Assembly (NCBI GenBank): GCA_035626775.1
Contig: DASPNA010000062.1
Span: forward strand, 3,480 to 67,479
Length of the DNA stretch: 64,000 nt
Direction: 5' to 3'
Source of the DNA: Thermoanaerobaculia bacterium
GTDB taxonomy: Bacteria; Acidobacteriota; Thermoanaerobaculia; Gp7-AA8
Of this stretch, positions 1,669-49,318 are shown piece by piece. The notes under the pieces were generated by a model. That model did not search any database, was not told where the DNA came from, and saw only the letters and a list, made by a program, of their open reading frames with translations. Numbering within the stretch: the stretch's first letter is position 1; each line of letters begins with the position of its first letter. The translations under genes and the position numbers were made by a program.

Positions 1669-1711
1669 GCACGCTTAGACAAGGGCATGGGCGCGGAGGA
1701 AACCAGCATTT

Positions 1712-1773
1712 CTCCGTGCTCTTTGTGCTCTCTGTGGTTTTTTTTCACCACAGAGAGCACAGAGAGCACGGAG
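1712..1773. promoter_or_regulatory. 26-bp-arm imperfect inverted repeat with T8 loop in divergent promoter region between VIT/vWA gene and giant protein 1
   Basis: ctccgtgctctttgtgctctctgtgg-tttttttt-ca-ccacagagagcacagagagcacggag, one mismatch. Each arm contains a direct 9-bp duplication (gtgctct / agagagcac). Confidence 0.45.
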
Positions 1774-20230: not shown

Positions 20231-20262
20231 TGGAGTGCGGCGGCGCAAGCCGCCGCACTCCA
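20231..20262. terminator. Perfect 14-bp-stem hairpin between convergent genes (REP-like family 3 core); likely bidirectional terminator
   Basis: tggagtgcggcggc-gcaa-gccgccgcactcca lies between stop of giant gene 2 (20225) and stop of minus-strand gene (20265). Confidence 0.6.
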
Positions 20263-22523: not shown

Positions 22524-22580
22524 TTGGAGTGCGGCGCAAAGCCGCCGCTTTGAAGCGGCAGCTTTGCTGCCGCACTCCGG
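22524..22580. repeat. REP-like palindromic element, family 3 (GGAGTGCGGC...GCCGCACTCC)
   Basis: tttggagtgcggcgcaaagccgccgctttgaagcggcagctttgctgccgcactccggag. Sits downstream of the regulator gene and upstream of the 741-aa gene. Confidence 0.55.
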
Positions 22581-23627: not shown

Positions 23628-26600
23628 ATGCGTCACGTAGTGTCTCTTGCAGTGGTGTTGTGTCTGGCCGTCGGGTCGATTTCCGCGGCCACATTCGAGA
23701 CCGTCACGGATGCCGCTCTCGTCGAGCGCTCCGAACTGGTCGTGGCCGGACGCGTGCTCGATGCCGCTTCGAGGCAGCTCGAGAACGGCTCGATCGTCAC
23801 CGACTACCGCCTCGCGGTCGACGACGTGCTGAAGGGCGCAGGCGCCGCTTCGATCGTCACGATCACGGAGTTCGGCGGCACGGCCGCGAGCGGCCTGATG
23901 CTGATCATCCCCGGCTCCGCGCGCTACACGCCCGGCAGCCGCGTGGTCGCATTCCTGAACGCGCGCAACGACGGCACGTACTTCACGTCGCACATGGCTC
24001 TCGGCCACTTCAAGTTCGAAGCGCGCCGCGACTTCGAGGTGCTGACGCGCGATGCGGATGGCGTCGAGCTCGAGAACGAAGCGCAGGCGCTGCGTCCGCG
24101 CACGGCCGCCGCGTTCGTGCGGTACGTTCGCGACGCGGCGAGCGGCATCGCGGTCGAGGCCTACGCGCCGAGCGTCGAGCCGGTAGGCGCAGATGACCCG
24201 CGCAAGACGCCGAAAGTCGACGCCGGTGCGGATTACGCGCTGAAGAACGGTTCTACGCCGCTCCGCTGGGAAGGCTGCGAAGCAGACTGCGTCATCGGTT
24301 ACTTCTGGAGCGGCGATCAAGGCGGCGTCGTCAACGACGCGGGCAGCATCGAAGCGGCGATGGACGCCTGGAACAGCCATGGCGACTCGTTCGTCAACCT
24401 CGGCCTCGGCGGTACGTCGTTGGCCACGAACCTCACCGTCTTCGATAACGAGAACACGATTCTCATCAACAACACCTCGTCGCCAGACTTCGGCCTCTGC
24501 AACGGCACGATCGCGTGCGGCGGTGTCTGGGGCAACACCAGCACGACGCACGTCTTCAAAGGCACCACCTATCTCTCCGTGCTCAACGGCGACATGCTCG
24601 TGCGCCCCGGCACCTACTCGAGCACGCAGTTCGAATCGATCGTCGCGCACGAGCTCGGACACACGCTCAGCCTGCGTCACTCGAACAGCGGAACCCCGTC
24701 CAGCACCAATGCGCTGATGAATTCCTCGCCGCCGCTCAGCGGCGCCGTGTTGCGCCAGTGGGACATGGACGCGATGGCGGAGCTCTACGGCGAAGGCCTC
24801 GCGTGCGCTCCGCCGACGAACCTCATCACCACCGGCGCCGGCACGATTTTCAGCGGCCAGACCAGAACGCTGACCGTCAGCGCCAGCGGCACCGCTCCGT
24901 TCAGCTATCAGTGGTATCGCGGCAACTCCGGCGACGACGACAATCCGGTCGGCACGAACTCCAGCCAGTTCACCACGCCGCCGCTCACCGAGACCACCTC
25001 GTATTGGGTGAAAGTCAGCGGCTGCACACCCGCGGTCAGCGCGAACAGCAACACGGTCACCGTCACCGTCGACGAGTGCCCGGAGCCGGGCATCACCTCG
25101 CAGCCGCAGAACAAGAACATCGCCACCAACACCTCCACGACGCTCAGCGTCGCGGCCCAGGGCGGCGCGCCGTTCAGCTATCAGTGGTACCGCGGCGAAC
25201 AGGGCGACATCACCAACCCCGTCGGCACCAACTCCCCGAACTTCAACACCGGCAACCTGACGCAGACGACCTCGTACTGGGTAAAAGTCACGAACGTGTG
25301 CGGCCTGCACGCGATCAGCCAAACTGCCACGGTCACCATCCAGGCGTGCCCGCGGCCGGCATTCACGACGCAGCCGCTCAGCCAGAACATCGCGTCGAAC
25401 ACCACCGCCACGCTGACCGTCGCGACGACGAGCAACACCACCGTTGCCTATCAGTGGTTCCGCGGACTCGTTGGCGATACGTCGAATCCGGTCGGCATCA
25501 ACTCGACGAGCTTCACCACGCCGGCGCTCACGCAGACCACGTCGTACTGGGTGCGCGCGACGAACAACTGCGGCCCGACCAATAGCGCACAGGCCACGAT
25601 CACCGTCGGTCCCACGTGCAATACGCTTTCGATCGCCTCCATCCCCTCCACCGTCAACGCCACCCTCGGTGACGGCCTCACGATCAACGTCACCCCCTTC
25701 GGCACCGCGCCGTTCACGTATCAGTGGTTCGCCGGCGAATCGGCGGACGATGCGAATCCGGTCGCGGGCGCCACGAGCTCATCGCTGCCGCTGGCGCCGT
25801 TCACCGCCACCGGCACGTTCCGCTACTGGGTTCGCGTCGGCGACGCCTGCGGCAACACGCTGAACAGCCCGACCGTCGTCATCAACGTGGCATGCGGATC
25901 GCCGACCACGCCGATCATCTCGGCGCCGTCGATCTCGCACTTCAGCGCCGGCTATGACGTGCAGTGGCTCGCGAACCTCGCACAGACGTCGAACTTCGAG
26001 CTGCAGGAAGCGCGCGACGCCGCGTTCACCGTCGGTGTGAAGACGTTCCTCGTCGACGAGTTGAGCGAGCACATCGATCCGCATCTCGAGATCACGACCG
26101 ACACGCGCTTCTACTATCGCGTCCGCGGCATCGGCAACTGCACGCAGCAGCCGACACCGTATTCGAAGACCACCAGCACCGTCATCACCGCGCCCGAGCC
26201 GGCGAACAGCAGCGAGTTCTCGATCAGCGTGCCGCAGAGCACGACACAGACGTTCACGCAGCCGTACCTCGTGCCCGGCTTCGGGGAGATCGCGACCGCG
26301 GGCGACACCTTCTCGATCGTCACCGACGCGGCGTGGCTGACCGTCTTCCCGGCGTCCGGCGCGCTGTCCGCGGGCGGCACGACCGTGCAGTTCACGATCA
26401 ATCCGTCGCTCCTCGAGATCGGCTCGACCACCGGCTCCATCGTCGTGACGCGCACGCAGGGCACCGCGGCACGAGGCGGCATCGTCACGAACGCGACCAG
26501 CAAATTGACGCTGCCGATTACGATCAGCAAAGTCACGCCGGTCACGCCTTCACCGCGCGACGGAAATGCGCCGCTCGGCACGCTCGTCGTTCCCGCCATC

Positions 26601-28051: not shown

Positions 28052-28140
28052 AGTTCCCCGGAGTACCTCGGGTTCCTCGGAGGGGTTTTAACCCCCCGAG
28101 GAACCCCGAGGAACCGAGGAACCCGAGGAACCAGCGGCCG
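28052..28140. repeat. REP-like hairpin with arms made of tandem CCTCGG(A/G)(G/T)TAC-type 10-bp units, family 1; between convergent genes
   Basis: ccggagtacctcgggttcctcggagggg-tttta-accccccgaggaaccccgaggaaccgaggaacccgaggaacc followed by (GCNGCC)n. Overlaps the 3' end of the pgl ORF. Confidence 0.6.
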
Positions 28141-28780
28141 CGGCCGCAGCCGCAGCGGCAGCCGCGTCCACGAACCACCACGAATCCAATCCACTCGTCG
28201 CAACGGCGACCGGATGCTGTACACCCTCCCGCACTTCGCGAATCACCTTCGCTTTTCCCGCACCCGTCGCTAACACGAGTCGCTGTTTGGCCGCGCGAAG
28301 CACCGGCATGGTCAGCGTCACGCGCCACTGATCGAGTCGCGGAACGAACACTTCACTCGCGATGCGATCGTGTACGTCGAGCACCGGCGTCCCGGGAAAG
28401 AGCGACGCGGTGTGACCGTCGTCGCCGCATCCGAGCAGAACGAGATCGAGGTCGCCCGGCCACTCTTGCTCGAACGCACGCGCCGTCGCGGCGGGATCAT
28501 TCAGCTCCGTCTTGAATCGCAGCCATCGCTCCGGCACGCCACGCGCGAACAATGTTCGCTCGATCATCGCGGCGTTCGATTGGGGATCGTCCATCGGCAC
28601 GTAGCGCTCGTCGACGAGCACCCACGTCACATCGCTCGGCAGCGACTTCGACAAAATCTCGTACAGCCGCGTCGGCGTGGAACCGCCCGTCACGCCGATC
28701 GTTTTCGCGTTCGATTGCAGGATGGTTCGCGCCGCCGCCTGCGCGAGCGATTCCGCGTCATCGAAGACGCGCAGATTCAC
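28088..28780 (-). CDS. pgl: 6-phosphogluconolactonase
   Basis: GVTGGSTPTRLYEIL, LVDERYVP, LVLLGCGDDGHTASLFPG motifs. GTG start. C-terminal 27 aa (VDAAAAAAAAAAAGSSGSSVPRGSSGG) are encoded by the family-1 repeat element. Confidence 0.8.
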   Translation of the reverse strand: MNLRVFDDAESLAQAAARTILQSNAKTIGVTGGSTPTRLYEILSKSLPSDVTWVLVDERYVPMDDPQSNAAMIERTLFARGVPERWLRFKTELNDPAATARAFEQEWPGDLDLVLLGCGDDGHTASLFPGTPVLDVHDRIASEVFVPRLDQWRVTLTMPVLRAAKQRLVLATGAGKAKVIREVREGVQHPVAVATSGLDSWWFVDAAAAAAAAAAAGSSGSSVPRGSSGG

Positions 28781-29766
28781 GCGGCCAGTCTCCGCGCGAT
28801 CTTCAGCGTCTTCAGATACACGCGATCCGCTTCCGGACGTTTCAGCAGGCGCACGATGAGGTCTTCACTCTCGCGCGCGAGCGAGCGCGTGATGCAGTCG
28901 ACCGACGTTTCGATGCCGTCCGAGCTGGCGATGACGACACCGCGTTCGCGATCGTGGCGGATGCTCGCGACAGAATCGTCGAAATGAATCTCGATCGATC
29001 CGATGCCCGCCTCATGCCCATCTTGTGCGAGCTCGAACGCGATCTCCGTCCCGCTCTGCGCCGTCAACCACGCTGCGTACAACAGCCCCTCTGCATTCGC
29101 GCCGAATGACGCATCGCCGCCGCTGATCACGCGCAGCTTGCGGATGTTGCGCATGCGTTCACGCATCGACGGCGGATCGAACAACGCGGCCGTCGCGGCA
29201 CGCCACTCCTCGACGCGTGCCCAGTTCAGGTCCGCGGGTGCGGTCGTGGTCTGCTCGCCGATGCGCGAGACGAGCTCGAGGTCAGCCGCGCCGTTGAAGT
29301 GCGACGAGTCGACGATCAGTCGATCGGCCGGATCGAGCAGCGTCTCGACATAGCCATGCTGTTCGTTCGGCAGATCGCCGAGCCACCACACCGCGACCGG
29401 CATGTCCGGCAGCAGCAGCGCACTGACCAGCGGCGGGATGTGATGCACGCGCTCCCCCGCCGCGACGATGACCACTTCTTCCGAGCACACCTGCTTGCCG
29501 CCGCCGATGACGTGGCAGTTCGCGGAGATCCATGACGCGATGTCGGCGGCGCCGGCGGGATCCGCCCGAACGACGATCGTGCGCTGTGGCACGCGAGCAC
29601 TGGCGCGCGCGAGCACTTCCGTCGCGCGCGCATGTTCATCCGGCGTCCACGTGTGCGCGACGACGTTCCACAACGCGGCGCGCGTGACCGCGCGTTCGTC
29701 TTCATTCTTTTCGGCGCGCCACAGCTCCGCGAGCTGGCGCTCGATTGCGGTTACATCGACCCGCAC
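28777..29766 (-). CDS. opcA: Glucose-6-phosphate dehydrogenase assembly protein OpcA-like
   Basis: Located between zwf and pgl. ORF extends to 29844, but that stretch overlaps the zwf stop and is encoded by a REP element. GTG at 29766 (VRVDVTAIERQLAELWRAE) is the preferred start. Start is uncertain. Confidence 0.65.
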   Translation of the reverse strand: MRVDVTAIERQLAELWRAEKNEDERAVTRAALWNVVAHTWTPDEHARATEVLARASARVPQRTIVVRADPAGAADIASWISANCHVIGGGKQVCSEEVVIVAAGERVHHIPPLVSALLLPDMPVAVWWLGDLPNEQHGYVETLLDPADRLIVDSSHFNGAADLELVSRIGEQTTTAPADLNWARVEEWRAATAALFDPPSMRERMRNIRKLRVISGGDASFGANAEGLLYAAWLTAQSGTEIAFELAQDGHEAGIGSIEIHFDDSVASIRHDRERGVVIASSDGIETSVDCITRSLARESEDLIVRLLKRPEADRVYLKTLKIARRLAA

Positions 29767-29769
29767 ATC

Positions 29770-29822
29770 CGCCTTCTCCCCTCCCTGAGGGGAGAAGGTG
29801 CCGAAGGCGGATGAGGGGTGAG
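29770..29822. repeat. REP-like element family 2 (CCTTCTCCCCTC-N-GAGGGGAGAAGG hairpin + CCGAAGGCGGATGAGGGG tail)
   Basis: gccttctcccctccctgaggggagaaggtgccgaaggcggatgaggggtgagc. Other copies at 36316-36405, 43055-43140, 49250-49305. Confidence 0.6.
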
Positions 29823-29828
29823 CGCCAG

Positions 29829-31346
29829 TCACGGTCTCCGCCATTTGCGTCCGTCTTTCTCGAGCATCTCATCCGCCGCTTCCGCGCCCCACGCACCCGC
29901 GGGATGGAAATGCAGCGGCGCCTCGTTCGCGGCCCACTGCTTCAGCAGCGGATCGAGCCACGCCCACGCGGTCTCGATCTCATCGCGGCGCGCGAACAGC
30001 GTCGCGTCGCCCAGCATCGTCTCCAGCAACAACCGTTCGTACGCCTCGGGTGGCTCCGCGCCGAACGACGTTGCGTAGCGAAACTCCATCGTCACCGGCG
30101 CGGTGCGCACCGTCGGTCCGGGCAGCTTCGATTCGAACTTCAGCGAGATCCCTTCGTCCGGCTGGATGCGGATCGCCAGGACATTCGCGTGCATCTTCAT
30201 GCCGAGGCGGCTGAAGAGCGGATGCGGGGCGGCGCGGAAATGGATGGAGATGTCGGTCACGCGCTTCGGCAGCCGCTTTCCCGCGCGCAGATAAAACGGG
30301 ACGTCGGCCCAGCGCCAGTTGTCGATGAAGATCTTCAGCGCCGCGTACGTCTCCGTCATCGACTCCGGATTCACCTTCTCTTCGGTGCGATACGCGGGCA
30401 CGGGCTCGCCGAGGACAGAGCCTTCTTTGTATTGCGCGCGGACCGCATTGCCGGACGAGAGTGGCCGGAGTGCGCGAAGCACCTTCACCTTCTCGTCGCG
30501 CACCGCATCCGCTTCGAAGGCCACCGGCGGCTCCATCGCCACGAGTGACACGAGCTGGAGCATGTGGTTCTGGATGATGTCGCGCGTGATGCCGGCGCCG
30601 TCGAAGTAGTTGCCGCGTTTCTCGACGCCGATCGATTCCGCGACCGTGAGCTGCACGTGATCGATGTACTGGCGGTTCCAGAACGGCTCGAAGATGCCGT
30701 TCGCGAACCGCAGCACGAGCAGGTTCTGCACCGTCTCCTTGCCGAGGTAGTGATCGATGCGGAAGACCTGTCGCTCGCGGAACGTGTGCACGGCGACGCG
30801 GTTCAGCTCGCGCGCGGATTCGAGGTCGTGGCCGAACGGCTTCTCCACGATCACGCGCGTGTACGGACCGCGGCCCTCGGGATCGTTGACCATCCCTTTC
30901 GATCCGAGCGTCTCCGAGATCGCGGCGAAGAAATCAGGCGGGACGGCGAGGTAATAGATGCGCCGTCCGCCGGTGCCGCGCGTGCGATCGAACTCCGCCA
31001 TCCGTTCCTTGAGCCGGTCGTAGCAGGAGAGGTCGCCGAACTCGCCCTGCACGTAGAACAGCCCCTTCGCGAAGTTCTCCCAGACCGCATCGTCGACAGG
31101 TCGCGTGCGCGCGTGTTGATTGCACGCTTCCTTCATCGACGCGCGGAACTGCTCGTCGCTGATCGCCGCGCGCGCGAAGCCGATGATCGTCTGTCCGCTC
31201 GGCAACAGCCCGTCGTGCGCGAGCGAGTACAGACCGGGAATCAACTTGCGCTGCGTGAGATCGCCGGAGGCGCCAAAGATGACGAGACATGACGGCTCCG
31301 GCACGCGCTCCTGCTCGAGCCCTTCCCGCAGCGGGTTCGGTTGCAT
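29829..31346 (-). CDS. zwf: Glucose-6-phosphate 1-dehydrogenase
   Basis: VIFGASGDLTQRKLIPGLY (NADP-binding), RIDHYLGKE and EKPFGHD motifs; 505 aa. Confidence 0.95.
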   Translation of the reverse strand: MQPNPLREGLEQERVPEPSCLVIFGASGDLTQRKLIPGLYSLAHDGLLPSGQTIIGFARAAISDEQFRASMKEACNQHARTRPVDDAVWENFAKGLFYVQGEFGDLSCYDRLKERMAEFDRTRGTGGRRIYYLAVPPDFFAAISETLGSKGMVNDPEGRGPYTRVIVEKPFGHDLESARELNRVAVHTFRERQVFRIDHYLGKETVQNLLVLRFANGIFEPFWNRQYIDHVQLTVAESIGVEKRGNYFDGAGITRDIIQNHMLQLVSLVAMEPPVAFEADAVRDEKVKVLRALRPLSSGNAVRAQYKEGSVLGEPVPAYRTEEKVNPESMTETYAALKIFIDNWRWADVPFYLRAGKRLPKRVTDISIHFRAAPHPLFSRLGMKMHANVLAIRIQPDEGISLKFESKLPGPTVRTAPVTMEFRYATSFGAEPPEAYERLLLETMLGDATLFARRDEIETAWAWLDPLLKQWAANEAPLHFHPAGAWGAEAADEMLEKDGRKWRRP

Positions 31347-31360
31347 GGGGCAAGTCTAGT

Positions 31361-31563
31361 GCCTCGGAGTACCTCGGAGTACCTCGGAGTACCTCGGAGT
31401 TCCTCGGGTTCCTCGGAGTTCCTCGGGTTCCTCGGAGTTCCTCGGGTTCCTCGGAGTACCTCGGGTTCGTAGAGTTGTAGAGGAGCTTCGCAATGGGTGT
31501 CCTCTACGACTCTACGACTCTAAGACTCCCTCCGAGGTACTCCGAGGAACTCCGAGGTACTTC
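31361..31563. repeat. Large family-1 palindromic element in divergent zwf/thiolase intergenic region: (CCTCGGAGTA)4 (CCTCGGGTT/CCTCGGAGTT)n ... central unique segment ... inverted CTCCGAGGTA units
   Basis: gcctcggagtacctcggagtacctcggagtacctcggagttcctcgggttcctcggagttcctcgggtt...gtagagttgtagaggagcttcgcaatgggtgtcctctacgactctacgactc...ctccgaggtactccgaggaactccgaggtac. Confidence 0.6.
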
Positions 31564-32880
31564 GTGTGCGGTATGCTCCGCCCCATGACGTGGCAATACT
31601 CACCGCGCGTAGCCGTCGTCGCCGGACTGCGCACTCCTTTCGCGAAATCGGGCACGCATTACGGGCATCTCTCCGCGCTCGACCTCGGCAAAATCGTGGT
31701 CACGGAGCTCGTGCAGCGCTCGGGCATCGATCCGAATGAAGTGCAGGAGCTCGTCTTCGGCAACGTCATCCCCTCCGTCAAAGCGCCGAACATCGCGCGC
31801 GAGATCGTCCTCGGCACCGGCCTGCCGCGCCGCATCCCCGCGTACAGCGTCAGCAAGGCGTGCGCGTCCGCGAACCAGTCGATCACGGCCGCGTCCGACA
31901 TGATCGCGCGCGGCTACGCCGACACGGTCATCGCCGGCGGCGCGGAATCGCTGTCCGACGTGCCGATTCTCTTCTCGAAAAAATTCGCCGACGCGCTCGT
32001 CTCCGCGAGCAAACAGAAATCGCTCGGCGGCAAGCTCGGATCGTTCTCGAAGATTCGTCCGAAAGACCTCGCCCCCGACGCGCCCGCGATCGCCGAGTCG
32101 TCGACAGGGCTCACGATGGGCGAATCGGCCGAGAAGATGGCCAAGGCCAACGGCATCACGCGCGAAGAGCAGGACCGCTTCGCGCTGCAGAGCCATCATC
32201 GCGCAGCGGAAGCGACGGCGAATGGGCGGTTCAAGGACGAGGTGATGCAGGTTGTCGTGCCGCCGTCGTTCGACAACATCGTCGACCAGGACAATCTCAT
32301 CCGCGGCGACACGACGCTCGACGCGCTTTCGAAACTGCGTCCGGTGTTCGACCGCAAGTACGGCACGATCACCGCGGGCAACGCCTCACCGCTGACCGAT
32401 GGCGCGGCGGCGGTGCTGCTGATGTCGGAGGAAAAAGCGAAGGCACTCGGCATCAAGCCGCTCGGCTTCATCAAGAGCTACGCGTATGCCGCGACCGATC
32501 CGTTCGATCAGTTGTTGCAGGGCCCCGTGTTCGCGCTACCGGTTGCGCTCGAGCGTGCGAAGGTGAAGCTCGAAGAGATCAAGATCATCGAGATGCACGA
32601 GGCATTTGCCGCGCAGGTCTTGTCCAACATCCAATGGATCGGCTCGAAGAAGATCGCGCAGGAAAAGCTCGGACGCAGCGAGCCGGTGGGCCAGATCGAT
32701 CCGGAAAAGATCAACCGTACCGGCGGCTCCATCGCCCTCGGCCATCCGTTCGGCGCAACCGGCGCGCGCATCGTCACGACCGTGTGCAACGAACTGCAGC
32801 GCACCGGCGAACAGTACGGCCTCGTGACCGTGTGCGCGGCGGGCGGCATCGGCGTGGCCATGGTGTTGGAGCGCGAGTAG
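31564..32880 (+). CDS. Acetyl-CoA C-acetyltransferase / 3-ketoacyl-CoA thiolase
   Basis: Thiolase active-site region SVSKACASANQSITAASDMI. C-terminal GGSIALGHPFGATGARI and VCAAGGIGVAMVLE. The true start may be ATG 31573 or 31585. Confidence 0.9.
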   Translation: MCGMLRPMTWQYSPRVAVVAGLRTPFAKSGTHYGHLSALDLGKIVVTELVQRSGIDPNEVQELVFGNVIPSVKAPNIAREIVLGTGLPRRIPAYSVSKACASANQSITAASDMIARGYADTVIAGGAESLSDVPILFSKKFADALVSASKQKSLGGKLGSFSKIRPKDLAPDAPAIAESSTGLTMGESAEKMAKANGITREEQDRFALQSHHRAAEATANGRFKDEVMQVVVPPSFDNIVDQDNLIRGDTTLDALSKLRPVFDRKYGTITAGNASPLTDGAAAVLLMSEEKAKALGIKPLGFIKSYAYAATDPFDQLLQGPVFALPVALERAKVKLEEIKIIEMHEAFAAQVLSNIQWIGSKKIAQEKLGRSEPVGQIDPEKINRTGGSIALGHPFGATGARIVTTVCNELQRTGEQYGLVTVCAAGGIGVAMVLERE

Positions 32881-34982
32881 TGGCGCAGCTGGTCCGCGCC
32901 GTGTGCCCCCACGATTGCCCCGACACGTGCGCCATGCTCGTCACCGTCGAAGACGGACGCGCCATCCGCATGGCCGGTGATCCCGATCATCCCGTCACGC
33001 AGGGCTTCCTTTGCACGAAGGTGGCGAAGTATCTCGAGCGCACGTATCACGATGGACGTCTGCTCTATCCGCAGATCCGCACCGGCGCGAAAGGCGAAGG
33101 GAAATTCCGGCGCGCGACGTGGGATGAAGCGCTCGACGTCATCGCCACCAATCTGCGGCGCGTCATCGACACGCACGGACCGCAGGCGATCCTTCCCTAC
33201 TCGTACGCCGGAACCATGGGGTTGATCCAGGGCGAGTCGATGGACCGCCGGTTCTTTCATCGCATCGGCGCGTCGCTGCTCGATCGCACCATCTGCGCGA
33301 GCGCGGGCGTCGAAGCGCTGAATGCGACCTACGGCACGCGTATGGCGCCCGATCCGGAAGACGTCGTGAACGCGAAACTGATCGTGCTGTGGGGCACGAA
33401 CACGCTAACGTCGAACCCGCACCTCTGGCCGTTCATCCGCAAGGCGAAGGCGAACGGTGCGACCACGGTCTGCATCGATCCATTGCGCACGCGCACGGCT
33501 GTCGCGTGCGACGAGCACATCGCCATCCGTCCCGGTACCGACGCGGCGCTCGCGCTGTCGATGATGCACGTGCTCTTCCGCGACAACCTCGCAGACCGCG
33601 GCTACCTGAGCGAGATGACGATCGGTTGGGAAGAGTTGCGCGAGCGCGTGCTGAACGAATATGCGCCGTCACGCGTCGCGGAGATCTGCCGCATTCCTGC
33701 CGAGACGATCGAACATCTCGCGCGGCGCTACGGCACCACGCGGCCGGCGTTCATCCGTCTCAACTACGGGCTGCAGCGCCACGCAGGCGGCGGTTCCGCC
33801 GTGCGCGCGATCTCGATCCTTCCCGCGGTGACCGGCGCATGGGACGACGTCGGCGGCGGGGCGATGCTCTCGACCTCCGGCACGTTCTCCGCGCTCGACA
33901 CGACCACGCTGCAACGCACCGATCTCATCCCACCCAACACCCGCACCATCAACATGACTCGACTCGGCGAAGCGCTTACGCGCATCGACAATCCGCGCGT
34001 CATGGCGATGATCAACTACAACTCCAATCCCGCGACGATCGCGCCGGATCGCGAGAACGTGCTCGCCGGCCTGCGCCGCGAAGATCTCTTCACGGTCGTG
34101 CTCGAGCACTTTCAGACCGACACCGCCGACTACGCCGACGTGCTCCTGCCAGCGACGACGCAGCTCGAGCATGAAGACGTGCACCGCGCTTACGGCCACA
34201 CGTTCACGATGTTCAACGCGCGCGCGATCGAGCCGCTCGGCGAAGCGCTGCCGAACACCGAGATCTTCCGCCGCATCGCCGCGCGGATGAATCTCGACTT
34301 TCCCGAGCTGCAGGAAAGCGACGAGACGATGATGCGGCAGGTGCTGGCGAAGATGCCGTTCACGCTCGAGGAGCTGCGCGAGCGTTCGTGGATCCGCCTC
34401 GACATCGCCTCGCCGCATCTTCCCTATCGTCGCGGCTCGCGCGTGCCGACACCGAGCGGCCGGATCGACATCGACTCGGCACGCGCCGCGGCGTCCGGAG
34501 TCGATCGCATCCCCGAGTACGTACCGCCATACGAATCGGAAGAGCGCGATCCCGAGCTCGTGCGCCGTTATCCGCTCGCGCTACTCTCGCCCCCCGCGCA
34601 TTCGTTCCTCAACTCGACGTTCGTGAACGTCGCATCGCTGCGCCGCGCGGCCGGCAAGCCGACGCTGGAGATCCACGCGGACGACGCACGCGCCCGCGGC
34701 ATCGAGTCGGGCGTGAAGGTCTCGATCTTCAACGATCGCGGCGCGTTCACCGCGGAAGCGGTCATCACCGATCGCGTGCGTCCCGGCGTCGTGTCCGCGC
34801 CGTCCGTGTGGTGGGGCAAGCTCACAGATGACAAGAACAACGCGAACCACACCACGTCGCAGGCGCTGACCGACCTGGGCAATGGCGCCACGTTCTACGA
34901 CAACCAGGTCGATGTGCGCCTATGGAGTGCGGCAGCAGAGCTGCCGCTTGAAAAGCGGTGGCTGCGCCACCGCACTCCATAG
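32880..34982 (+). CDS. Molybdopterin (MGD) oxidoreductase, BisC/formate-dehydrogenase-like family
   Basis: Start GTG 32880 overlaps thiolase stop (TAGTG). N-terminal 4Fe-4S motif CPHDCPDTCAM. Molybdopterin-oxidoreductase and C-terminal molybdopterin dinucleotide-binding-like regions. Last about 20 codons run through REP family-3 element. Confidence 0.85.
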   Translation: MAQLVRAVCPHDCPDTCAMLVTVEDGRAIRMAGDPDHPVTQGFLCTKVAKYLERTYHDGRLLYPQIRTGAKGEGKFRRATWDEALDVIATNLRRVIDTHGPQAILPYSYAGTMGLIQGESMDRRFFHRIGASLLDRTICASAGVEALNATYGTRMAPDPEDVVNAKLIVLWGTNTLTSNPHLWPFIRKAKANGATTVCIDPLRTRTAVACDEHIAIRPGTDAALALSMMHVLFRDNLADRGYLSEMTIGWEELRERVLNEYAPSRVAEICRIPAETIEHLARRYGTTRPAFIRLNYGLQRHAGGGSAVRAISILPAVTGAWDDVGGGAMLSTSGTFSALDTTTLQRTDLIPPNTRTINMTRLGEALTRIDNPRVMAMINYNSNPATIAPDRENVLAGLRREDLFTVVLEHFQTDTADYADVLLPATTQLEHEDVHRAYGHTFTMFNARAIEPLGEALPNTEIFRRIAARMNLDFPELQESDETMMRQVLAKMPFTLEELRERSWIRLDIASPHLPYRRGSRVPTPSGRIDIDSARAAASGVDRIPEYVPPYESEERDPELVRRYPLALLSPPAHSFLNSTFVNVASLRRAAGKPTLEIHADDARARGIESGVKVSIFNDRGAFTAEAVITDRVRPGVVSAPSVWWGKLTDDKNNANHTTSQALTDLGNGATFYDNQVDVRLWSAAAELPLEKRWLRHRTP
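34921..34982. repeat. REP-like element family 3
   Basis: tatggagtgcggcagcagagctgccgcttgaaaagcggtggctgcgccaccgcactccatag. Confidence 0.55.
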
Positions 34983-35008
34983 GACGCTGCGCTACACTGC
35001 GCGCGCGC

Positions 35009-35794
35009 ATGCTCTACGCGATCTCCGCCCTCTTCGTCATCGTGGTCTGGCTCGCGATCGTGCTCCTCAACGAGCGCTACGGCCTCCTGAGCTGCGACCG
35101 CTTTCCGTCGACCGGCGCGAAGTGGTTCGCGTACGTCTGGCTGCTGCTCTTCATGGTGGGGCTGGCGCTGCTCGTGACGCAGTCCGCGCTCAGGCCGACG
35201 ACCACGAAAGAGCTCGCGAACATGCCGTTCTACGCGCTGTTCTCGATGCACGCGATCCTGGTCGTGTTCCTCATCGGCTGGTGGGCTGCGACGGGATTTC
35301 CAAGCCTTCGCGAGTTCGTCAACATCCGCCACGAGCGACCGGCGGAAGTCGTCGCCATCGGAGTCTCGGTCGGCGTCGGCGGCTGGATCTTCACGCTCGC
35401 GTTGGCGATGCTCATCGGTTTGCTATTGCAGGCCACCGGCTTGATGGATGAAGCGCCGGATCCGCCGGCCATGATCGGCTGGATGGCCGCGCTGGCCGGC
35501 TGGAAGAAGGCGCTGATCATCCTTTCGGCGATGACCGTCGAAGAGGCGTTCTTCCGCTCGTTCCTGCAGAAGCGCGTCGGTCTGATCGCGTCGACGATCC
35601 TCTTCTCGCTTGCGCACTTCACGTACGGCAATCCGTTGATGCTGATCGGCGTGACCATCGTCTCGCTCGTCATCGGAATCACGTTCTATCGCACCAAGAA
35701 CGTCATCCCCGGCGTCATCGCGCACGGCGTCTTCGACGCGATTCAGCTCTTCGTCATCGTTCCGTTCGTCGTGAAGATGATGGGCATGGGCTAG
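35009..35794 (+). CDS. CPBP family intramembrane glutamic endopeptidase (CAAX protease/Abi family)
   Basis: Polytopic membrane protein. EEAFFRSFLQKR and FSLAHFTYGNP motifs (EExxxR ... FxxxH). Start chosen after the REP element. Confidence 0.8.
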   Translation: MLYAISALFVIVVWLAIVLLNERYGLLSCDRFPSTGAKWFAYVWLLLFMVGLALLVTQSALRPTTTKELANMPFYALFSMHAILVVFLIGWWAATGFPSLREFVNIRHERPAEVVAIGVSVGVGGWIFTLALAMLIGLLLQATGLMDEAPDPPAMIGWMAALAGWKKALIILSAMTVEEAFFRSFLQKRVGLIASTILFSLAHFTYGNPLMLIGVTIVSLVIGITFYRTKNVIPGVIAHGVFDAIQLFVIVPFVVKMMGMG

Positions 35795-35796
35795 CG

Positions 35797-36312
35797 ATGA
35801 GCTCCTACGCGGACGCTCTCAGTGCGCTGAGGTCGGGCGGCAACGTCGCCCGCGATGACGTGCGCAAATGGATCGATTCCGGCGACCTGCTGACGTGGAG
35901 CGTCGTGTACGCGCTCGCGGAGACCGGATGGGCGCGCATTCAGCCGGAGATCCCGGGCGACGAGCACACTGATTTCATGCGCCGCTACTTGTTGCGTTGC
36001 ATCGAAGAGAACCCGCCGTCCGGTGATTATCTGCACGGCGGATACGAAGCAGCCTGGGAGCTCGCGGCCACGCTGAAACACTGGCGCCTCCTCGGCGGCC
36101 GCATCGCCGCCACCGTCCGCGGCGTGGCGCTCGATCTCGAAAAGATTTACCGCCGCGGCGAACCGGCCACGCAGAACCGCATCCTGTGCGGCGTGATGGA
36201 GCACGCGTTCGAAGATCCCGCCATCCGGCCGTACTTCGTCGACTGGGAACGGGATCCCGACCTGCGCGACGCGTACAAGCTGGCGCTCGAATGGGGCGCG
36301 GCGCACGAGTAG
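35797..36312 (+). CDS. Hypothetical protein (171 aa), 2 bp downstream of CPBP protease gene
   Basis: Sequence is not Arg-skewed and is tightly linked to the upstream gene. No recognisable motif. Confidence 0.45.
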   Translation: MSSYADALSALRSGGNVARDDVRKWIDSGDLLTWSVVYALAETGWARIQPEIPGDEHTDFMRRYLLRCIEENPPSGDYLHGGYEAAWELAATLKHWRLLGGRIAATVRGVALDLEKIYRRGEPATQNRILCGVMEHAFEDPAIRPYFVDWERDPDLRDAYKLALEWGAAHE

Positions 36313-36315
36313 GCG

Positions 36316-36405
36316 TGTACCGCCCGCAAGCGGGGCGAGGGTTACCCTTGTAGCCTTCTCCCCTCGGCGAGGGGAGAAGGTGCCCGAAGGGCGGATGAGG
36401 AGTGC
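36316..36405. repeat. REP-like element family 2, long form with two hairpins
   Basis: gtaccgcccgcaagcggggcgagggttacccttgtagccttctcccctcggcgaggggagaaggtgcccgaagggcggatgaggagtg. Sits between convergent genes. Confidence 0.6.
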
Positions 36406-36407
36406 GT

Positions 36408-37727
36408 TTACTGCTCGCTGACGACCACGCCGTCGCCTTCGAAGCGGATCTTGAATCCGGCCACGCCCTCCTGCAGGATCATGACATTCTCGAGTGACGC
36501 ATCATCGACGACCGTCGGGATCACATTGCCCGTCCACGCCACAAGCGCGTTCGAGGAGATGGAGAGCGGATACTCGCGCGTCACGCGCAGCGTGAGCGGC
36601 TCGATCGACGTCGAGATCGCCAGCGAGCCTTTGCCGAAGATCTTCACGACGTCGATCTTGCGCTGGTACGACGCGTCGTAGATCGGCTCGACGCGATATG
36701 TGAGCGAGTCTTCGAGCGCGAGCAGGTTGCTCCCTTCGATGTAGATGAACTCGTCGTTGAGATCGAGCAGGAAGGTCTTGCGGCCTTTCTCGTAGACGAA
36801 GATCTTCCCCTGCCCCACCGCCTTCACCAGCGTTTGCGCGGTGGTGCCCAGGAGGCCGGATTCGGCGACGAACTTGAGGTTGCCGGAGTAGCTCGAGACC
36901 GTACCGCGCTTGCAATGAACCGAGCGCGCGAAGTTGATCTCGAGGAAGCCGTTCTCGTGCAGCGCGAACGTCCTCGATGCGCCTTCGATCTTGCGTCCGA
37001 CGTCGATGCGTTTCGCTTCGACATGCTGCGGATCGTCGACGGCATCCTGCAGTTTGCGCGCTGCAGTCACGGCTGCGACGGAGATCGGCGCCGTGACATC
37101 GGGCGGCGGCGTTGGTATGCGCGCCACCGGTTGCGGCGGAGGCGCGGGCGCTGCACCGGGCATCGTCCGCGTTGGTATCGCATCCGGCTTCACGGCCGGG
37201 ATCTTCTGCGTGATGTGTGGCGGCGCGGGCGCAGGAACCGGCGCGGGCGGACGCATCTCCAGCTCGACTTCGCGCACCAGTTTGTCCGCGCCCGCGAAAC
37301 GCAGATGCTCGATCGCCAGTCCGAACTTTTTCTTCTGGCGGTACAACAGGCCGAGGTAAAGGTGCGACTTGGCGTAGTTCGGACGCAGCTCGACAGCGCG
37401 CAGGAGGTAGTGCTCGGCTTCGTCCTGTTTGCCCTGCTTGAAGAGGATCAGGCCGAGGTTCGAATGGAGGATGAAGACGTTCGGGTTCTCCGCGATGAGT
37501 CTGCGATAGATGACTTCCGCCTCGGGGAACGCGTTCGTTTTGAAGTAGACCAGGCCGAGGAGATTGAGGACGTCGGCGTCGTCGGGGCGGAGACGTTGCG
37601 CGGCCTCGAGCTCGCGCCGTGCCTCCGCATACCGCCCTTCCTGAAACGCCTCCCGTCCTCGGTTGTAATGCAGCAGGAAGACGCCCTGATCGAAAGGCGG
37701 CGCAACAGCCGGATCACGCTCGGGCAT
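36408..37727 (-). CDS. TPR-repeat protein with Pro-rich linker and C-terminal AIM24-like domain
   Basis: N-terminal TPR units (AEARRELEAAQRLRPDDADVLNLLGLVYF, AVELRPNYAKSHLYLGLLY). PAPVPAPAPP linker. C-terminal region with GKIFVYEKGRK ... AISTSIEPLT ... GFKIRFEGDGVVV typical of AIM24/TIGR00266. Confidence 0.65.
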   Translation of the reverse strand: MPERDPAVAPPFDQGVFLLHYNRGREAFQEGRYAEARRELEAAQRLRPDDADVLNLLGLVYFKTNAFPEAEVIYRRLIAENPNVFILHSNLGLILFKQGKQDEAEHYLLRAVELRPNYAKSHLYLGLLYRQKKKFGLAIEHLRFAGADKLVREVELEMRPPAPVPAPAPPHITQKIPAVKPDAIPTRTMPGAAPAPPPQPVARIPTPPPDVTAPISVAAVTAARKLQDAVDDPQHVEAKRIDVGRKIEGASRTFALHENGFLEINFARSVHCKRGTVSSYSGNLKFVAESGLLGTTAQTLVKAVGQGKIFVYEKGRKTFLLDLNDEFIYIEGSNLLALEDSLTYRVEPIYDASYQRKIDVVKIFGKGSLAISTSIEPLTLRVTREYPLSISSNALVAWTGNVIPTVVDDASLENVMILQEGVAGFKIRFEGDGVVVSEQ

Positions 37728-37757
37728 GCGGCGAAATTGTACTCGACCGAGCGGAGA

Positions 37758-37848
37758 CGGTACCTCGGGTTCCTCGGAGGGAAGCCGCGAAGAACTCCGA
37801 ACCCCTCCGAGGTACTCCGAGGTACCCGAGGTACTCCGAGGTACTACT
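37758..37848. repeat. Family-1 palindromic element with tandem decamer arms
   Basis: ggtacctcgggttcctcggaggg-aagccgcgaagaactccgaac-ccctccgaggtactccgaggtacccgaggtactccgaggtac. Confidence 0.6.
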
Positions 37849-38555: not shown

Positions 38556-38873
38556 ATGTCCTTCAAGCCGGTGCAAGCGGAAGTCGACGCGTGGATCTCG
38601 CAGTTCGAGGAAGGCTACTTCGCGCCGCTGCCGATGCTCGCGCGCCTCACTGAGGAAGTAGGCGAGCTCGCGCGCGTGCTGATGCATCAGTACGGAGGGA
38701 AGAAGCCGAAGACCGGCGAGGATGCGGGCGACGTAGGAGACGAGATCGCGGACGCGATGTTCGTGCTGGTGTGCCTCGCGAACTCGCTGAACATCGATCT
38801 CGATGAGAAGTTCGGGGCGATGATGGAGAAGTATCGGACGCGCGACGCGGAGAGGTGGAGCAGGAAGACTTAG
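38556..38873 (+). CDS. MazG-like nucleotide pyrophosphohydrolase
   Basis: LTEEVGELARVL ... EIADAMFVLVCLAN pattern (EExxE...DxxD) of the MazG domain. Confidence 0.75.
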   Translation: MSFKPVQAEVDAWISQFEEGYFAPLPMLARLTEEVGELARVLMHQYGGKKPKTGEDAGDVGDEIADAMFVLVCLANSLNIDLDEKFGAMMEKYRTRDAERWSRKT

Positions 38874-38975
38874 TCTCAGAGTCTCAGAGTCTCAGAGGGT
38901 ATCCTTCAGGCGCTGCTGGTGAGGCCGACCCTCTGAGACTCTGAGACTCTGAGACTCTGAGACTCTGAGACTCTG
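38871..38975. repeat. Palindromic element with (AGTCTCAG)3 left arm and (CTGAGACT)5 right arm around a 38-nt loop; between convergent genes
   Basis: tagtctcagagtctcagagtctcagaggg...ccctctgagactctgagactctgagactctgagactctgagactctg. Confidence 0.65.
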
Positions 38976-43047: not shown

Positions 43048-43054
43048 GGCATAC

Positions 43055-43140
43055 GACCCCCTCGTCGAGGGGAGAAGGCTACACGAGGTCGTAGCCCTCG
43101 CCCCGCTTGCGGGGAGAGGGTGGCCGAAGGCGGATGAGGG
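43055..43140. repeat. REP-like element family 2, long rearranged form, between convergent genes
   Basis: cgaggggagaaggctacacgaggtcgtagccctcgccccgcttgcggggagagggtggccgaaggcggatgaggggctaca. Confidence 0.6.
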
Positions 43141-43141
43141 G

Positions 43142-49249: not shown

Positions 49250-49305
49250 GCGACCCCTCATCCGCGCTTCGCGCACCTTCTCCCCTCGCGGAGGGGAGAA
49301 GGCTA
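49250..49305. repeat. REP-like element family 2 (inverted orientation) between convergent genes
   Basis: cgacccctcatccgcgcttcgcgcaccttctcccctcgcggaggggagaaggctaca. Confidence 0.6.
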
Positions 49306-49318
49306 CATTAGGGAGCAC

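Follow-up and report, generated by a model that had tools for sequence, protein, structure and literature searches.

Structure and gene context of the hairpins

The window analysed here, the whole stretch of 64,000 nucleotides from a Thermoanaerobaculia bacterium, carries three hairpins of a family that we term the decamer family, the arms of which are inverted tandem arrays of a short unit. The hairpins and the features next to them are as follows.

28052-28132: decamer-family hairpin copy 1, with ~3 units, the loop GGGGTTTTAACCCC, and ~4 units
28137-28165: GCGGCY hexamer array beside copy 1, encoding the poly-Ala tail of pgl
31353-31358, minus strand: putative -10-like box TAGACT, 6 nt upstream of the zwf ATG, proposed from sequence comparison and kept in relatives
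31358-31564: decamer-family hairpin copy 2, with ~11 units in the left arm and 3 in the right arm
31467-31528: hairpin nested in the middle of copy 2, built of another unit, the 8-mer GAGTCGTA/CTCTACGA
31572-31577, plus strand: putative -10-like box TATGCT, upstream of the thiolase ATG, proposed from sequence comparison and kept in relatives
37745-37848: decamer-family hairpin copy 3, with arrays at 37759-37845 of ~2 + 4 units plus a degenerate unit

All three hairpins had been reported in the initial annotation, which placed them essentially correctly and also described their gene context, with copy 2 between divergent genes and the other two 3' of genes, as we find it. Copy 1 is located between the convergent Ig-repeat gene and pgl; the pgl ORF runs through its right arm and has its TAA stop within the loop, and the adjoining GCGGCY array lies where the relative L108 has the left arm of a hairpin with an 8-mer unit (GTTGGCGG). 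Copy 2 separates the divergent zwf and thiolase genes and fills the space between the two -10-like boxes, TAGACT forming the left edge of this spacer and TATGCT the right edge. Its long arm has a 19-nt higher-order period, and its nested unit GAGTCGTA is similar to AGTCGCAA, found at the equivalent site in the relative L111. Copy 3 lies downstream of the SLT gene and upstream of the TPR/AIM24 gene, between the SLT stop codon and the -10 box of the TPR gene; compared with the empty site of the relative L115, the inserted block corresponds to ~37745-37844.

The unit pattern (A/G)GT(T/A)CCTCGG is present in the arms of all three hairpins. The unit consists of a conserved core, T(T/A)CCTCGG, and a spacer of 0-3 nt, and thus measures 8-11 nt, so that the inverted-repeat arrays described initially are real but their strict 10-bp unit is not. 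Likewise, the arms are tandem arrays as claimed, with 2-11 rather than 3-9 units in the window copies. Shuffled sequences are expected to contain 1.25 +/- 1.03 copies of the motif CCTCGGRKTH, whereas the window has 20, a number reached in none of 100 shuffles. Folded as RNA, copies 1 and 3 have energies of -52 to -58 kcal/mol (z -4.3 to -5.1) and copy 2 of -131 kcal/mol (z -9.1), and no shuffled sequence folded as stably as copies 1-3.

Dispersal and consensus of the decamer family

The three sites are genuine copies of a dispersed hairpin repeat family of soil Thermoanaerobaculia. The family was found at more than 105 loci, overwhelmingly in ~10 Thermoanaerobaculia/Acidobacteriota MAG species, where many loci are pairs of plus and minus arrays 10-70 nt apart, and in 57 distinct copies on contigs of the window's own metagenome and one sibling sample; nearly all copies are intergenic. 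The repeat family proposed in the initial annotation as REP-like thus has many further members, and the alternative of a one-off local duplication fails on the more than 100 further loci. A comparison with Rfam 15 gave no match at the gathering score, only sub-threshold matches to eukaryotic miRNA-precursor hairpin models.

Elements are 60-200 nt long and end in (ACG)AGTA-CCTCGG ... CCGAGG-TACT(CGT), or in GGTT/AACC. Among the host copies, the innermost unit is of the TT type in 61%, the second of the TA type in 71%, and the outermost of the TA type in 72%, and the inner stem AGGGG../..CCCCT recurs. Arrays of other species have TT units throughout, indicating that unit variants are genome-specific. 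Across ~10 species the 8-nt core is conserved and the spacers vary freely, the loops differ in every copy, and the arms range from 2 to 19 units, with expansion of single arms. The spacers of facing units in the two arms did not match above chance, and this lack of fine-scale arm complementarity argues against strong selection on the stem.

Other unit families with the same build

The window contains two more hairpins constructed in this way.

1711-1773: hairpin of the 9-mer TCTCTGTGC, with ~3 + 3 units and a T8 loop, in a divergent intergenic region
38872-38975: hairpin of the 8-mer AGTCTCAG in the gap separating the convergent MazG and cNMP-binding genes, with 3 + 5.6 units

The latter is flanked on the left by a sequence (GGACGCGGAAGC) that repeats, in inverted orientation, the MazG 3' end retained in L115, indicating that the palindrome has extended into flanking sequence. 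At least 37 unit families (units of 7-11 nt), the decamer family among them, have the tandem-arm hairpin build, and many unit sequences were met only once. The number of units per arm has its mode at 4 at every unit length (62 of 104 decamer arms and 46 of 92 arms of other families). Since the unit AGT(T/A)CCTCGG has no regular G3 tract, nor do most other units (GAATGAA, AACGATG, AGTCTCAG), a G-quadruplex requirement cannot explain the 4-unit mode of at least 37 non-G-rich families in Thermoanaerobaculia.

Presence, absence, and turnover at intergenic sites

The relative L115, ~91% identical to the window in the flanking genes, carries neither copy 3 nor the AGTCTCAG hairpin, and its SLT-TPR spacer consists of TGA-CA-GAGTACAAT alone. 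At the site between the Ig gene and a 197-aa gene, a decamer element is present only in L113 and absent in six relatives, and new hairpins at the zwf-opcA junction are found only in L110 and L111. A tandem-arm hairpin occupies the thl-zwf site in all six relatives with sequence there; both this site and the pgl-Ig site have some hairpin in every relative, the sequence family differing, and one intergenic site holds five different unit families across six relatives. Elements are nested within one another in both orders (window copy 2, L108, L110, L113, and L179), and a whole GTTGTCR-family element, loop included, is common to the pgl-Ig site of L110 and the thl-zwf site of L113, which are different loci in different species. 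Two comparisons of filled and empty sites (SLT-TPR, window versus L115; Ig/197-aa, L113 versus the six relatives) revealed no junction direct repeat that would mark a target-site duplication, and the empty sites match the unit over only 5-6 nt, GAGTA(C). In the zwf-syntenic loci, which were not selected for repeats, we estimate ~1 element per 6-7 kb, which would correspond to several hundred per genome. The copy-specific loops, the dozens of like-built families, and the gain and loss between close relatives had been overlooked in the initial annotation.

Gene-end placement, length stability, and alternative explanations

Elements lie a median of 3.5 nt from the stop codon versus 31.5 nt from the next start. 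Flanking genes are tandem, divergent, and convergent in 42, 16, and 8 cases in the MAG set (background 267, 73, and 62) and in 26, 6, and 15 cases in the host set (background 191, 66, and 69); the orientation classes thus match the background in the MAGs, and a 3'-end preference is not consistent. The terminator function suggested initially gains little from these data, as no T-tract follows the stems of the window copies, no terminator-like site coincides with any of them, and divergent promoter regions hold elements at approximately the background rate. It is possible, although we consider it rather unlikely, that a lineage without U-tract terminators relies on whichever strong hairpins are available to terminate transcripts, stabilise 3' ends, or insulate promoters from one another, the repeat families merely supplying hairpins that selection retains at particular junctions. 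Such punctuation would agree with the start of the elements just past stop codons, with their very stable folds, and with the hairpins kept at pgl-Ig and thl-zwf in every relative despite differing families. It would also agree with the six convergent junctions in the window that measure at least 38 nt, all of which consist of a strong hairpin repeat (four families), and with canonical terminator-like sites being no commoner than in shuffles (7 vs 6.4; 19 vs 13.8 +/- 3.6). However, divergent promoter regions are not depleted of elements in the MAG set and are mildly depleted in the host set, copy 2 separates two promoters, a position in which termination would serve no purpose, L115 at ~91% identity has nothing in place of two hairpins, and fine-scale arm complementarity is not maintained. 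Site persistence may also have a neutral explanation, namely that a compact genome tolerates insertions only within older elements.

The hairpins had further been proposed as contingency or regulatory loci, in which frequent arm slippage would alter promoter spacing or terminator strength and so switch neighbouring genes. The span of 2 to 19 units among copies, the expansion of single arms, and the position of copy 2 directly beside the -10-like boxes of zwf and thiolase are in line with this proposal. Nevertheless, at the level of assembly consensus sequences, all four hairpins covered by L001, L002, and L114, assemblies with 0-5 SNPs relative to the window, are free of indels, and at least 12 orthologous loci, including a 16-unit arm, are 100% identical between two sibling metagenomes. 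Arm length changes between copies and species but not between the three or four near-clonal assemblies, and copies of such stability do not look like fast-switching loci. The neighbours, moreover, are housekeeping or metabolic genes rather than surface or restriction-modification genes, other copies follow stop codons, and one element type occupies every kind of junction; phase variation is accordingly judged highly improbable. Somewhat less improbable, but still poorly compatible with the data, is an array of binding sites, in which the core T(T/A)CCTCGG, ~4 per orientation, would serve as the target of a protein that binds DNA or RNA (nucleoid-associated, recombinase-like, or regulatory) and the hairpin would be secondary. 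The core kept across ~10 species, with spacer lengths that vary and are uncorrelated between arms, and the mode of 4 units irrespective of unit length would suit such recognition, but at least 37 other like-built unit sequences in the same genomes would need many proteins or a structure-specific one, a spacing that varies from 8 to 11 nt disrupts the helical phasing that would be expected if duplex binding were cooperative, and no candidate protein was identified. Finally, the hairpins could have been made in place, with no movement, by slippage and template switching (quasipalindrome correction) from a seed terminator. The flank GGACGCGGAAGC of the AGTCTCAG hairpin, an inverted MazG 3' end of the L115 type, and the many unit sequences of single occurrence point in this direction, whereas one unit with a structured consensus at more than 100 unrelated loci, an entire element with its loop common to unrelated loci, and arms not corrected against each other point away from it. 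Local origin as the sole mechanism is contradicted by the dispersal data, and we give it very little credence; local slippage or template switching may contribute to arm growth.

Proposed origin and spread

The decamer hairpin repeat family is probably mobile. We favour, with some reserve, its interpretation as a non-autonomous foldback, REPIN- or MITE-like repeat, tolerated just past stop codons and having incidental RNA-hairpin effects. This reading is based on the dispersal of the family, the structured host consensus, presence and absence between relatives, and the sharing of an element, loop and all, between loci, as well as on nesting, background-like orientation, abutment on stop codons, ORFs entering elements, and length stability. 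The element would be a long imperfect palindrome with ~4 T(T/A)CCTCGG units per arm, the short inner stem AGGGG../..CCCCT, and a copy-specific loop. New copies would arise as whole elements copied from master copies within the genome and would last only where they are harmless; in the compact, largely leaderless host genome, such places would be the short gaps separating a stop from the following promoter, and the interiors of older elements. The arms would gain and lose units by slippage or unequal exchange, each arm independently and slowly, with changes visible between species and not between near-clonal assemblies, and the loops would be remodelled fastest. A transcribed element would form a hairpin of -50 to -130 kcal/mol from ~3 nt past the stop, which would be expected to stop 3' exonucleases, or to make RNA polymerase pause in the absence of a U-tract, and might hinder terminating ribosomes. 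We regard these RNA-hairpin effects as incidental or secondarily exploited, rather than as the reason for the existence of the family.

Several observations fit a non-autonomous mobile repeat less well. Simple copy-and-paste does not predict decamer loops that are all different unless fast loop remodelling is added, the constant occupation of thl-zwf together with the hairpins at 6 of 6 convergent junctions could reflect selection for a hairpin there, the conserved core with free spacers would also fit a recognised motif, and the four-unit mode at every unit length is unexplained. In a weak test, a tblastn search of ~1.6 Mb of related loci from partly sampled genomes with two queries of approximate sequence, IS608 TnpA and E. 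coli RAYT, yielded only matches with E > 0.4, and no inverted-array pair around a transposase-sized ORF was seen in the loci examined, which belong to partial genomes. As a bolder and only tentative proposal, which we think will more probably fail than hold, the elements may form a distinct prokaryotic class of foldback mobile elements without a conventional transposase, spreading by a hairpin- or replication-based process, with ~4-unit arms whatever the unit length and dozens of families, and acting from ~3 nt past stops as the main U-tract-independent punctuation (terminator or insulator) of Thermoanaerobaculia.

Gene ends are remodelled by the elements, which provide stop codons and C-terminal tails and come between operon genes that overlap; turnover occurs at fixed intergenic sites, and in practice the elements break short-read assemblies. 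If they do terminate or insulate, they would constitute a lineage-specific transcript punctuation in a leaderless, U-tract-poor genome.

Comparison with known repeats and terminators

Hairpin-only ('I-shaped') intrinsic terminators of high-GC bacteria were reportedly described by Unniraman et al. in 2001 and Mitra et al. in 2009. The elements resemble them as stable GC-rich hairpins without a U-tract directly 3' of genes, but such terminators are gene-specific, whereas ours are a dispersed repeat that also lies between divergent promoters and in 5' regions. For REPs located 15 nt or less from a stop codon, Liang, Rudd, and Deutscher are said to have found in 2015 that translation of the upstream gene is lowered. 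With REP, BIME, and REPIN sequences the elements share extragenic location, high copy number, hairpin formation, genome-specific variants, and a frequent position directly past stops (PMC3116915, PMC3733652). A REPIN is an inverted doublet in which the arms are conserved and the spacer is less so (Bertels and Rainey, 2011, PMC3116915; Di Nocera et al., 2013, PMC3733652). In contrast to REPs, which are single palindromes of 20-40 nt with a GTAG or CGTC foot and are linked to RAYTs, the present elements have tandem-array arms, no fixed GTAG/CGTC head, and dozens of unit families side by side in one genome. They are similar to MITEs in their terminal inverted repeats, which here are the whole arms, but the target-site duplication of MITEs is missing at the two filled and empty sites compared. 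Drosophila FB is a Foldback-type transposon with internally repetitive inverted repeats. Inverted arms of tandem subrepeats are also present in the Foldback-type transposons Galileo (PMC3573991) and Tetris (PMC4079207). The likeness is architectural only and concerns subrepeat arms of unequal length, a variable or absent middle, and many non-autonomous copies; Foldback elements are kilobase-scale and eukaryotic, with known transposases and target duplications.

The tandem-array-arm build is unusual and barely described, earlier reports being sporadic and confined to Xanthomonas heptamers and one algal mitochondrion. In the mitochondrion of Lobosphaera incisa, one arm of the LIMP and HyLIMP palindromes repeats a short motif (AACCA; 10 nt in HyLIMP) and the next holds the complement of this array, and LIMP has an invariant 7-nt loop and 19 copies in this organellar genome (Tourasse et al., 2015, PMC4524435). 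These, too, are dispersed intergenic palindromes of variable stem length, whereas the elements described here have hypervariable loops, probably hundreds of copies, a bacterial host, and many unit families. The closest published analogue is the GGGAATC heptamer of Xanthomonas, which forms dispersed intergenic arrays with a mode of four units, most of them in convergent plus/minus pairs (70-75 pairs among ~185 arrays) capable of forming stem-loops (Rehm et al., 2015, PMC4692102). Those arrays lie on average 28 nt from the upstream ORF and much farther from the downstream ORF, vary in length by species while the repeat type is kept, and were interpreted as G-quadruplex motifs (PMC4692102). Dispersed intergenic pairs of inverted short-unit arrays with a mode of ~4 are common to both systems; Xanthomonas, however, belongs to another phylum, and its G-tract unit is able to form a G-quadruplex (four G3+ tracts), whereas the unit studied here is 8-11 nt long and not based on G-tracts, and nesting, stop-codon overlap, and site turnover, not reported for Xanthomonas, are present here. 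An uncultured soil class now adds dozens of like-built unit families, and the extension of the four-unit rule to their non-G-rich units of 7-11 nt casts doubt on the G-quadruplex explanation and suggests a shared mechanism of generation or recognition.

Structure and gene context of the three hairpins

The three hairpins of the window are a real feature, and the sites called in the initial annotation are all present in the sequence with the contents described there. Their 10-bp unit, one form of which is AGTTCCTCGG, is in fact 8-11 nt long and was better described as a conserved core, T(T/A)CCTCGG, to which a spacer of 0-3 nt is added (none, G, GG, AG...). The motif CCTCGGRKTH was found 20 times in the window versus 1.25 +/- 1.03 times in shuffled sequences. 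RNA folds of copies 1 and 3 reached -52 to -58 kcal/mol (z -4.3 to -5.1) and that of copy 2 reached -131 kcal/mol (z -9.1). The long arm of copy 2 has a higher-order period of 19 nt, composed of a 10-nt and a 9-nt unit. The gene order was taken from Pfam annotation and public gene calls; the JGI contig Ga0196978_1000139 carries DNA identical to the window.

Hairpins, genes and -10-like boxes in the window
1711-1773: hairpin of like build from another unit, 9-mer TCTCTGTGC
~23630-23645: -10-like box TACCAT upstream of a 197-aa gene
Ends at 28049, + strand: Ig-repeat protein, followed by copy 1
28052-28132: copy 1, ~3 units, loop GGGGTTTTAACCCC, ~4 complementary units
Between copies 1 and 2, all - strand: pgl, opcA, zwf
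31353-31358, - strand: -10-like box TAGACT of zwf
31358-31564: copy 2, ~11 units left and 3 right
31467-31528: hairpin nested in the centre of copy 2, different 8-mer, GAGTCGTA/CTCTACGA
31572-31577, + strand: -10-like box TATGCT of the thiolase gene
After copy 2, all + strand: thiolase, molybdopterin oxidoreductase, Rce1-like protein, 171-aa ORF, in this order
After the 171-aa ORF and before copy 3, - strand: TPR/AIM24
37736-37741, - strand: -10-like box TACAAT of the TPR gene
37759-37845: arrays of copy 3, ~2 + 4 units
After copy 3: SLT (- strand), then MazG (+ strand)
38872-38975: hairpin of like build from another unit, 8-mer AGTCTCAG, between MazG (+ strand) and a cNMP-binding protein (- strand)

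The pgl ORF (- strand) runs through a GCGGCY hexamer array into the right arm of copy 1 and on to a TAA in the loop, so that the tail AAAAAAAAAAAGSSGSSVPRGSSGG* after the conserved WWFVD motif is encoded by the hexamer array and the decamer arm (28088-28170). In the orthologues of two relatives, read by eye, the element-derived tails are different (ELAVGS* in L108 and RSAAAGAAAL* in L109). The -10-like boxes precede several ATGs at a distance of 6-9 nt, with conservation among relatives, and no Shine-Dalgarno-like spacing is visible between the boxes and the starts, which suggests from sequence that leaderless mRNAs are common in the host organism.

Two other repeat families were observed at gene junctions. 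A separate REP-like family, GGAGTGCGGCGG...CCGCCGCACTCC, occurs at convergent and tandem junctions, and in relatives it sits at the same junctions as tandem-arm hairpins in the window; its copy at 34919-34983 overlaps the ORF for molybdopterin oxidoreductase in the final ~21 codons. A third family, CCTTCTCCCCTC..GAGGGGAGAAGG with CCTCATCCGCC..TTCGG, fills three convergent junctions. The giant ORF at 9858-20225 contains eight tandem 381-bp units (9895-12937) and two 219-bp units (14399-14806), which are probably repeated Ig-like domains.

Copies of the other hairpin families
20236-20262, 22530-22578, 34919-34983: GGAGTGCGGCGG...CCGCCGCACTCC family, window
L109 8840-8880, L110 3620-3790, L111 7690-7860: GGAGTGCGGCGG...CCGCCGCACTCC family, relatives
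36313-36407, 43048-43141, 49250-49318: CCTTCTCCCCTC..GAGGGGAGAAGG family, window
~29787-29826: CCTTCTCCCCTC..GAGGGGAGAAGG family, partial copy inside the 5' end of opcA

Searches for known signals returned no match. An Rfam scan of 27-40 kb of the window gave spurious sub-threshold miRNA-hairpin matches and no family. A scan for canonical promoters and terminators found none at the elements, with counts at shuffle level, as were terminator-like sites in 32 kb, and none of the copies has a T-tract after the stem. The GTAG head of RAYT-associated REPs is absent from the elements, and no RAYT or IS200-type transposase was matched in a weak search.

Dispersal and consensus of the decamer family

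A scan that used a single genome per species and required three units in a row revealed more than 105 loci among the matches listed, most of them in about ten Thermoanaerobaculia/Acidobacteriota MAG species, with + and - arrays 10-70 nt apart at many of the listed loci. The REP-like character proposed in the initial annotation is thus borne out by a dispersed multi-copy family in species genomes and host contigs. In Streptomyces and other actinobacteria, the 24-nt matches show a period of 9 nt and have no relation to this family. Viral contigs contained no copies; their 19 matches were all unrelated 9-nt-period arrays without hairpin pairs, mostly of coding type.

About 45 complete hairpins were parsed from the species genomes, most commonly with 4 + 4 units. 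Their ends read ..(A/G)GTT-CCTCGG ... CCGAGG-AAC(T/C).., and every centre is different. The TA-variant unit, the typical form in the window, was matched at 115 loci when JGI metagenome contigs were scanned; ~45 of these loci belong to two samples, the metagenome of the window itself and a sibling, and comprise 57 distinct elements. The consensus of this host population is (ACG)AGTA-CCTCGG-(A)GTA-CCTCGG-AGTT-CCTCGG-AGGGGAT left of the loop and ATCCCCT-CCGAGG-AAC(T)-CCGAGG-TAC(T)-CCGAGG-TACT(CGT) right of it. In host arms the innermost unit is of TT-type in 61%, and TA-type units take the second position in 71% and the outermost position in 72%; AGGGG is a recurrent inner stem, and the loops (9 to 114 nt) are mutually unrelated. 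Since units are position-specific and variants genome-specific, the sequences argue that copies derive from master copies rather than from a separate origin at each site.

In a loop-versus-loop BLAST of 130 elements, decamer loops were unrelated except in orthologous or paralogous cases. For two elements with a common loop at one locus (L107), transposition was ruled out, and tandem gene duplication is the explanation instead. Genes between closely spaced elements are ordinary, with no transposase among them. An exact 20-mer from the flank of copy 2 (31343-31362) had no match in the metagenome_contigs collection, though other Ga0196978 contigs are present there; this absence is weak evidence because the window's own contig is apparently not in the collection.

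A wider class of tandem-arm hairpins

Tandem Repeats Finder (TRF) combined with a reverse-complement test identified, in the same MAGs and the window, at least 37 other unit sequences of 7-11 nt with the same architecture, such as GAATGAA, CAGGGCG, AACGATG, AGTCTCA(A/G), CGTTGCC, AATAGGAC, GTGGACGT, GTTGTCR, and GCTCGCAG; several non-decamer units were found at more than one locus. The mode is four units per arm whatever the unit length (median copies 4.1-4.3 for 7- to 10-mers and 3.5 for the few 11-mer arms), and arms measure 30-42 bp across unit families. Density was estimated at ~1 element per 6-7 kb in loci not chosen for repeats. A tandem-arm hairpin of a related 9-mer, GGGTTCCTC / GAACCTGAG, was observed in a Vicinamibacterales MAG (L008 4780-4939), and the architecture may extend past Thermoanaerobaculia to another acidobacterial class.

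Orthologous sites in relatives

Orthologues of zwf with 84-92% amino-acid identity were traced to syntenic contigs, and the intergenic sequence was read directly. The thiolase-zwf spacer contained a tandem-arm hairpin in all six relatives with sequence there, built from five different units.

Hairpins at two orthologous spacers
Thiolase-zwf, window: decamer hairpin with nested AGTCGTAG hairpin
Thiolase-zwf, L109 and L110: GCTCGCAG
Thiolase-zwf, L111: AGTCGCAA
Thiolase-zwf, L112: GGCAGAGG
Thiolase-zwf, L113: nested GTTGCTG/GTTGTCR
pgl-Ig, window: decamer hairpin
pgl-Ig, L108: decamer hairpin nested inside GTTGGCGG hairpin
pgl-Ig, L110: GTTGTCGG
pgl-Ig, L112: GTGGACGT
pgl-Ig, L109 and L111: unrelated REP-like hairpin

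The GTTGTCR elements of L110 (pgl-Ig) and L113 (thiolase-zwf) have their arms and 19 nt of their loops in common, and therefore a whole element was copied between loci. The zwf and opcA genes overlap by 16 nt in five genomes (the window, at 29829-29844, and four relatives). Directly after the zwf stop, L110 (5389-5491) and L111 (5896-6019) carry hairpins of GTTGAGCT and GTGGACGT units that separate zwf from opcA, which starts there at a new downstream ATG. In one relative only, a decamer element (L113 18540-18665) separates the 197-aa gene's start codon from its -10-like box, and would give an otherwise leaderless mRNA a hairpin leader of ~125 nt.

A closer relative with ~91% nucleotide identity (L115) is without copy 3 and without the AGTCTCAG hairpin. 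Its SLT-TPR spacer reads TGA-CA-GAGTACAAT..ATG, versus a 100-nt insertion in the window, and the empty site contains GAGTAC, a match to the unit. No target duplication was seen at this site or at the second filled/empty site (n=2, junctions read by eye). On its left side the AGTCTCAG hairpin is flanked by a copy, in inverted orientation, of the 3' end that MazG retains in L115, and therefore palindromes can grow into neighbouring sequence. Preferred insertion into loops is not claimed, because the frequency of nesting (~8 of ~190) is near the loops' share of non-coding DNA. Several metagenome contigs (L108, 1-105; L112, 1-163; and P0002) break off at the thiolase-zwf repeat, 70-160 nt upstream of zwf; tandem-arm elements break short-read assemblies.

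Length stability and independence of the arms

Among near-clonal assemblies, L002 is identical to the window, and L001 and L114 differ from it by 2 and 5 SNPs, all outside the elements; at the level of assembly consensus, no gaps were found across four hairpins in any of the three. At least twelve loci of 1.5-12 kb, one with a 16-unit arm, are 100% identical between two sibling metagenomes, a comparison likewise made at consensus level between possibly related samples. The suggestion in the initial annotation that the arrays are contingency loci is not supported, as the copy-number comparison it called for gave no difference in length among near-clonal assemblies at consensus level.

The spacer identity of facing units in the same element was compared with that expected from different elements, and was 0.236 versus 0.241 in host contigs and 0.271 versus 0.255 in MAGs. 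Spacer matching is not above chance, and therefore the arms evolve separately, by gain and loss of units; between arms, the 8-nt core alone is conserved. Such independence argues against strong selection for a perfect stem and against arm-to-arm correction, and quasipalindrome correction as a homogenising force was accordingly dropped. Conservation of the core alone leaves room for some factor that recognises it.

Position relative to genes and origin of the elements

Genes were called with a codon log-odds caller that reproduced the public JGI calls. When the orientation of flanking genes was compared with that of all adjacent gene pairs, including 66 classifiable elements in species-genome (MAG) loci, a preference for 3' ends was not consistent between the MAG and host sets.

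Orientation of flanking genes (tandem, divergent, convergent)
Elements, MAG loci: 42, 16, 8
All adjacent gene pairs, MAG loci: 267, 73, 62
Decamer copies, host contigs: 26, 6, 15
All adjacent gene pairs, host contigs: 191, 66, 69

The elements abut stop codons: the distance to the upstream stop has a median of 3.5 nt (-2 to +12 nt in 48 of 56), and that to the next start codon a median of 31.5 nt. The stop codon is often provided by the element terminus (T-AGTA, T-GAGTA), which is probably why TAG stops are in excess beside elements (30/60 vs 91/367; odds ratio 3.0, P = 1.6e-4).

A non-autonomous foldback-type repeat family, REPIN/MITE-like in behaviour, is the best-supported reading of the dispersal, structured consensus, presence/absence between relatives, nesting, stop-codon abutment, and near-clonal length stability. 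Elements would be copied within genomes and would be tolerated right after stop codons or within older elements; their arms would gain or lose units slowly and their loops would be remodelled fast. The chief alternative is selection of hairpins for transcript punctuation. In the window, each of the six convergent junctions that measure at least 38 nt is filled by a hairpin repeat, and the thiolase-zwf and pgl-Ig sites are always occupied by some hairpin, as punctuation would predict. Such persistence may also be explained neutrally, if, in a leaderless genome, hardly any sites are tolerant apart from the few bases that separate a stop codon from the following promoter. The tandem-arm elements could still act on RNA, through 3'-end protection or through pausing or termination independent of a U-tract. 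They might also interfere with terminating ribosomes, by analogy with REPs of E. coli that lie no more than 15 nt from a stop codon, for which Liang et al. 2015 reportedly found reduced translation of the upstream gene.

Comparison with known systems

Each of the REP/RAYT, MITE, contingency-locus, and intrinsic-terminator classes has at least one defining feature that these elements lack. The decamer family and the wider class appear to be undescribed for Acidobacteriota in the literature searched, although elements of this kind are known. The four-unit rule, core-only conservation, hypervariable loops, stop-codon abutment, and persistence of sites with turnover of families are puzzling, and their combination makes this a good system for studying how tandem-arm repeats are generated. 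Among the published analogues found, the GGGAATC heptamer arrays of Xanthomonas come closest; they are intergenic, mostly in inverted pairs, with a four-unit mode and an upstream ORF at 28 nt on average (PMC4692102). The authors attributed the four-unit preference to G-quadruplex formation; the mode is shared here, but by non-G-rich units of 7-11 nt, and therefore that explanation does not fit. The architecture is also held in common with the LIMP palindromes of an algal mitochondrion (PMC4524435) and with eukaryotic Foldback-type transposons, whose inverted repeats are internally repetitive (PMC3573991, PMC4079207).
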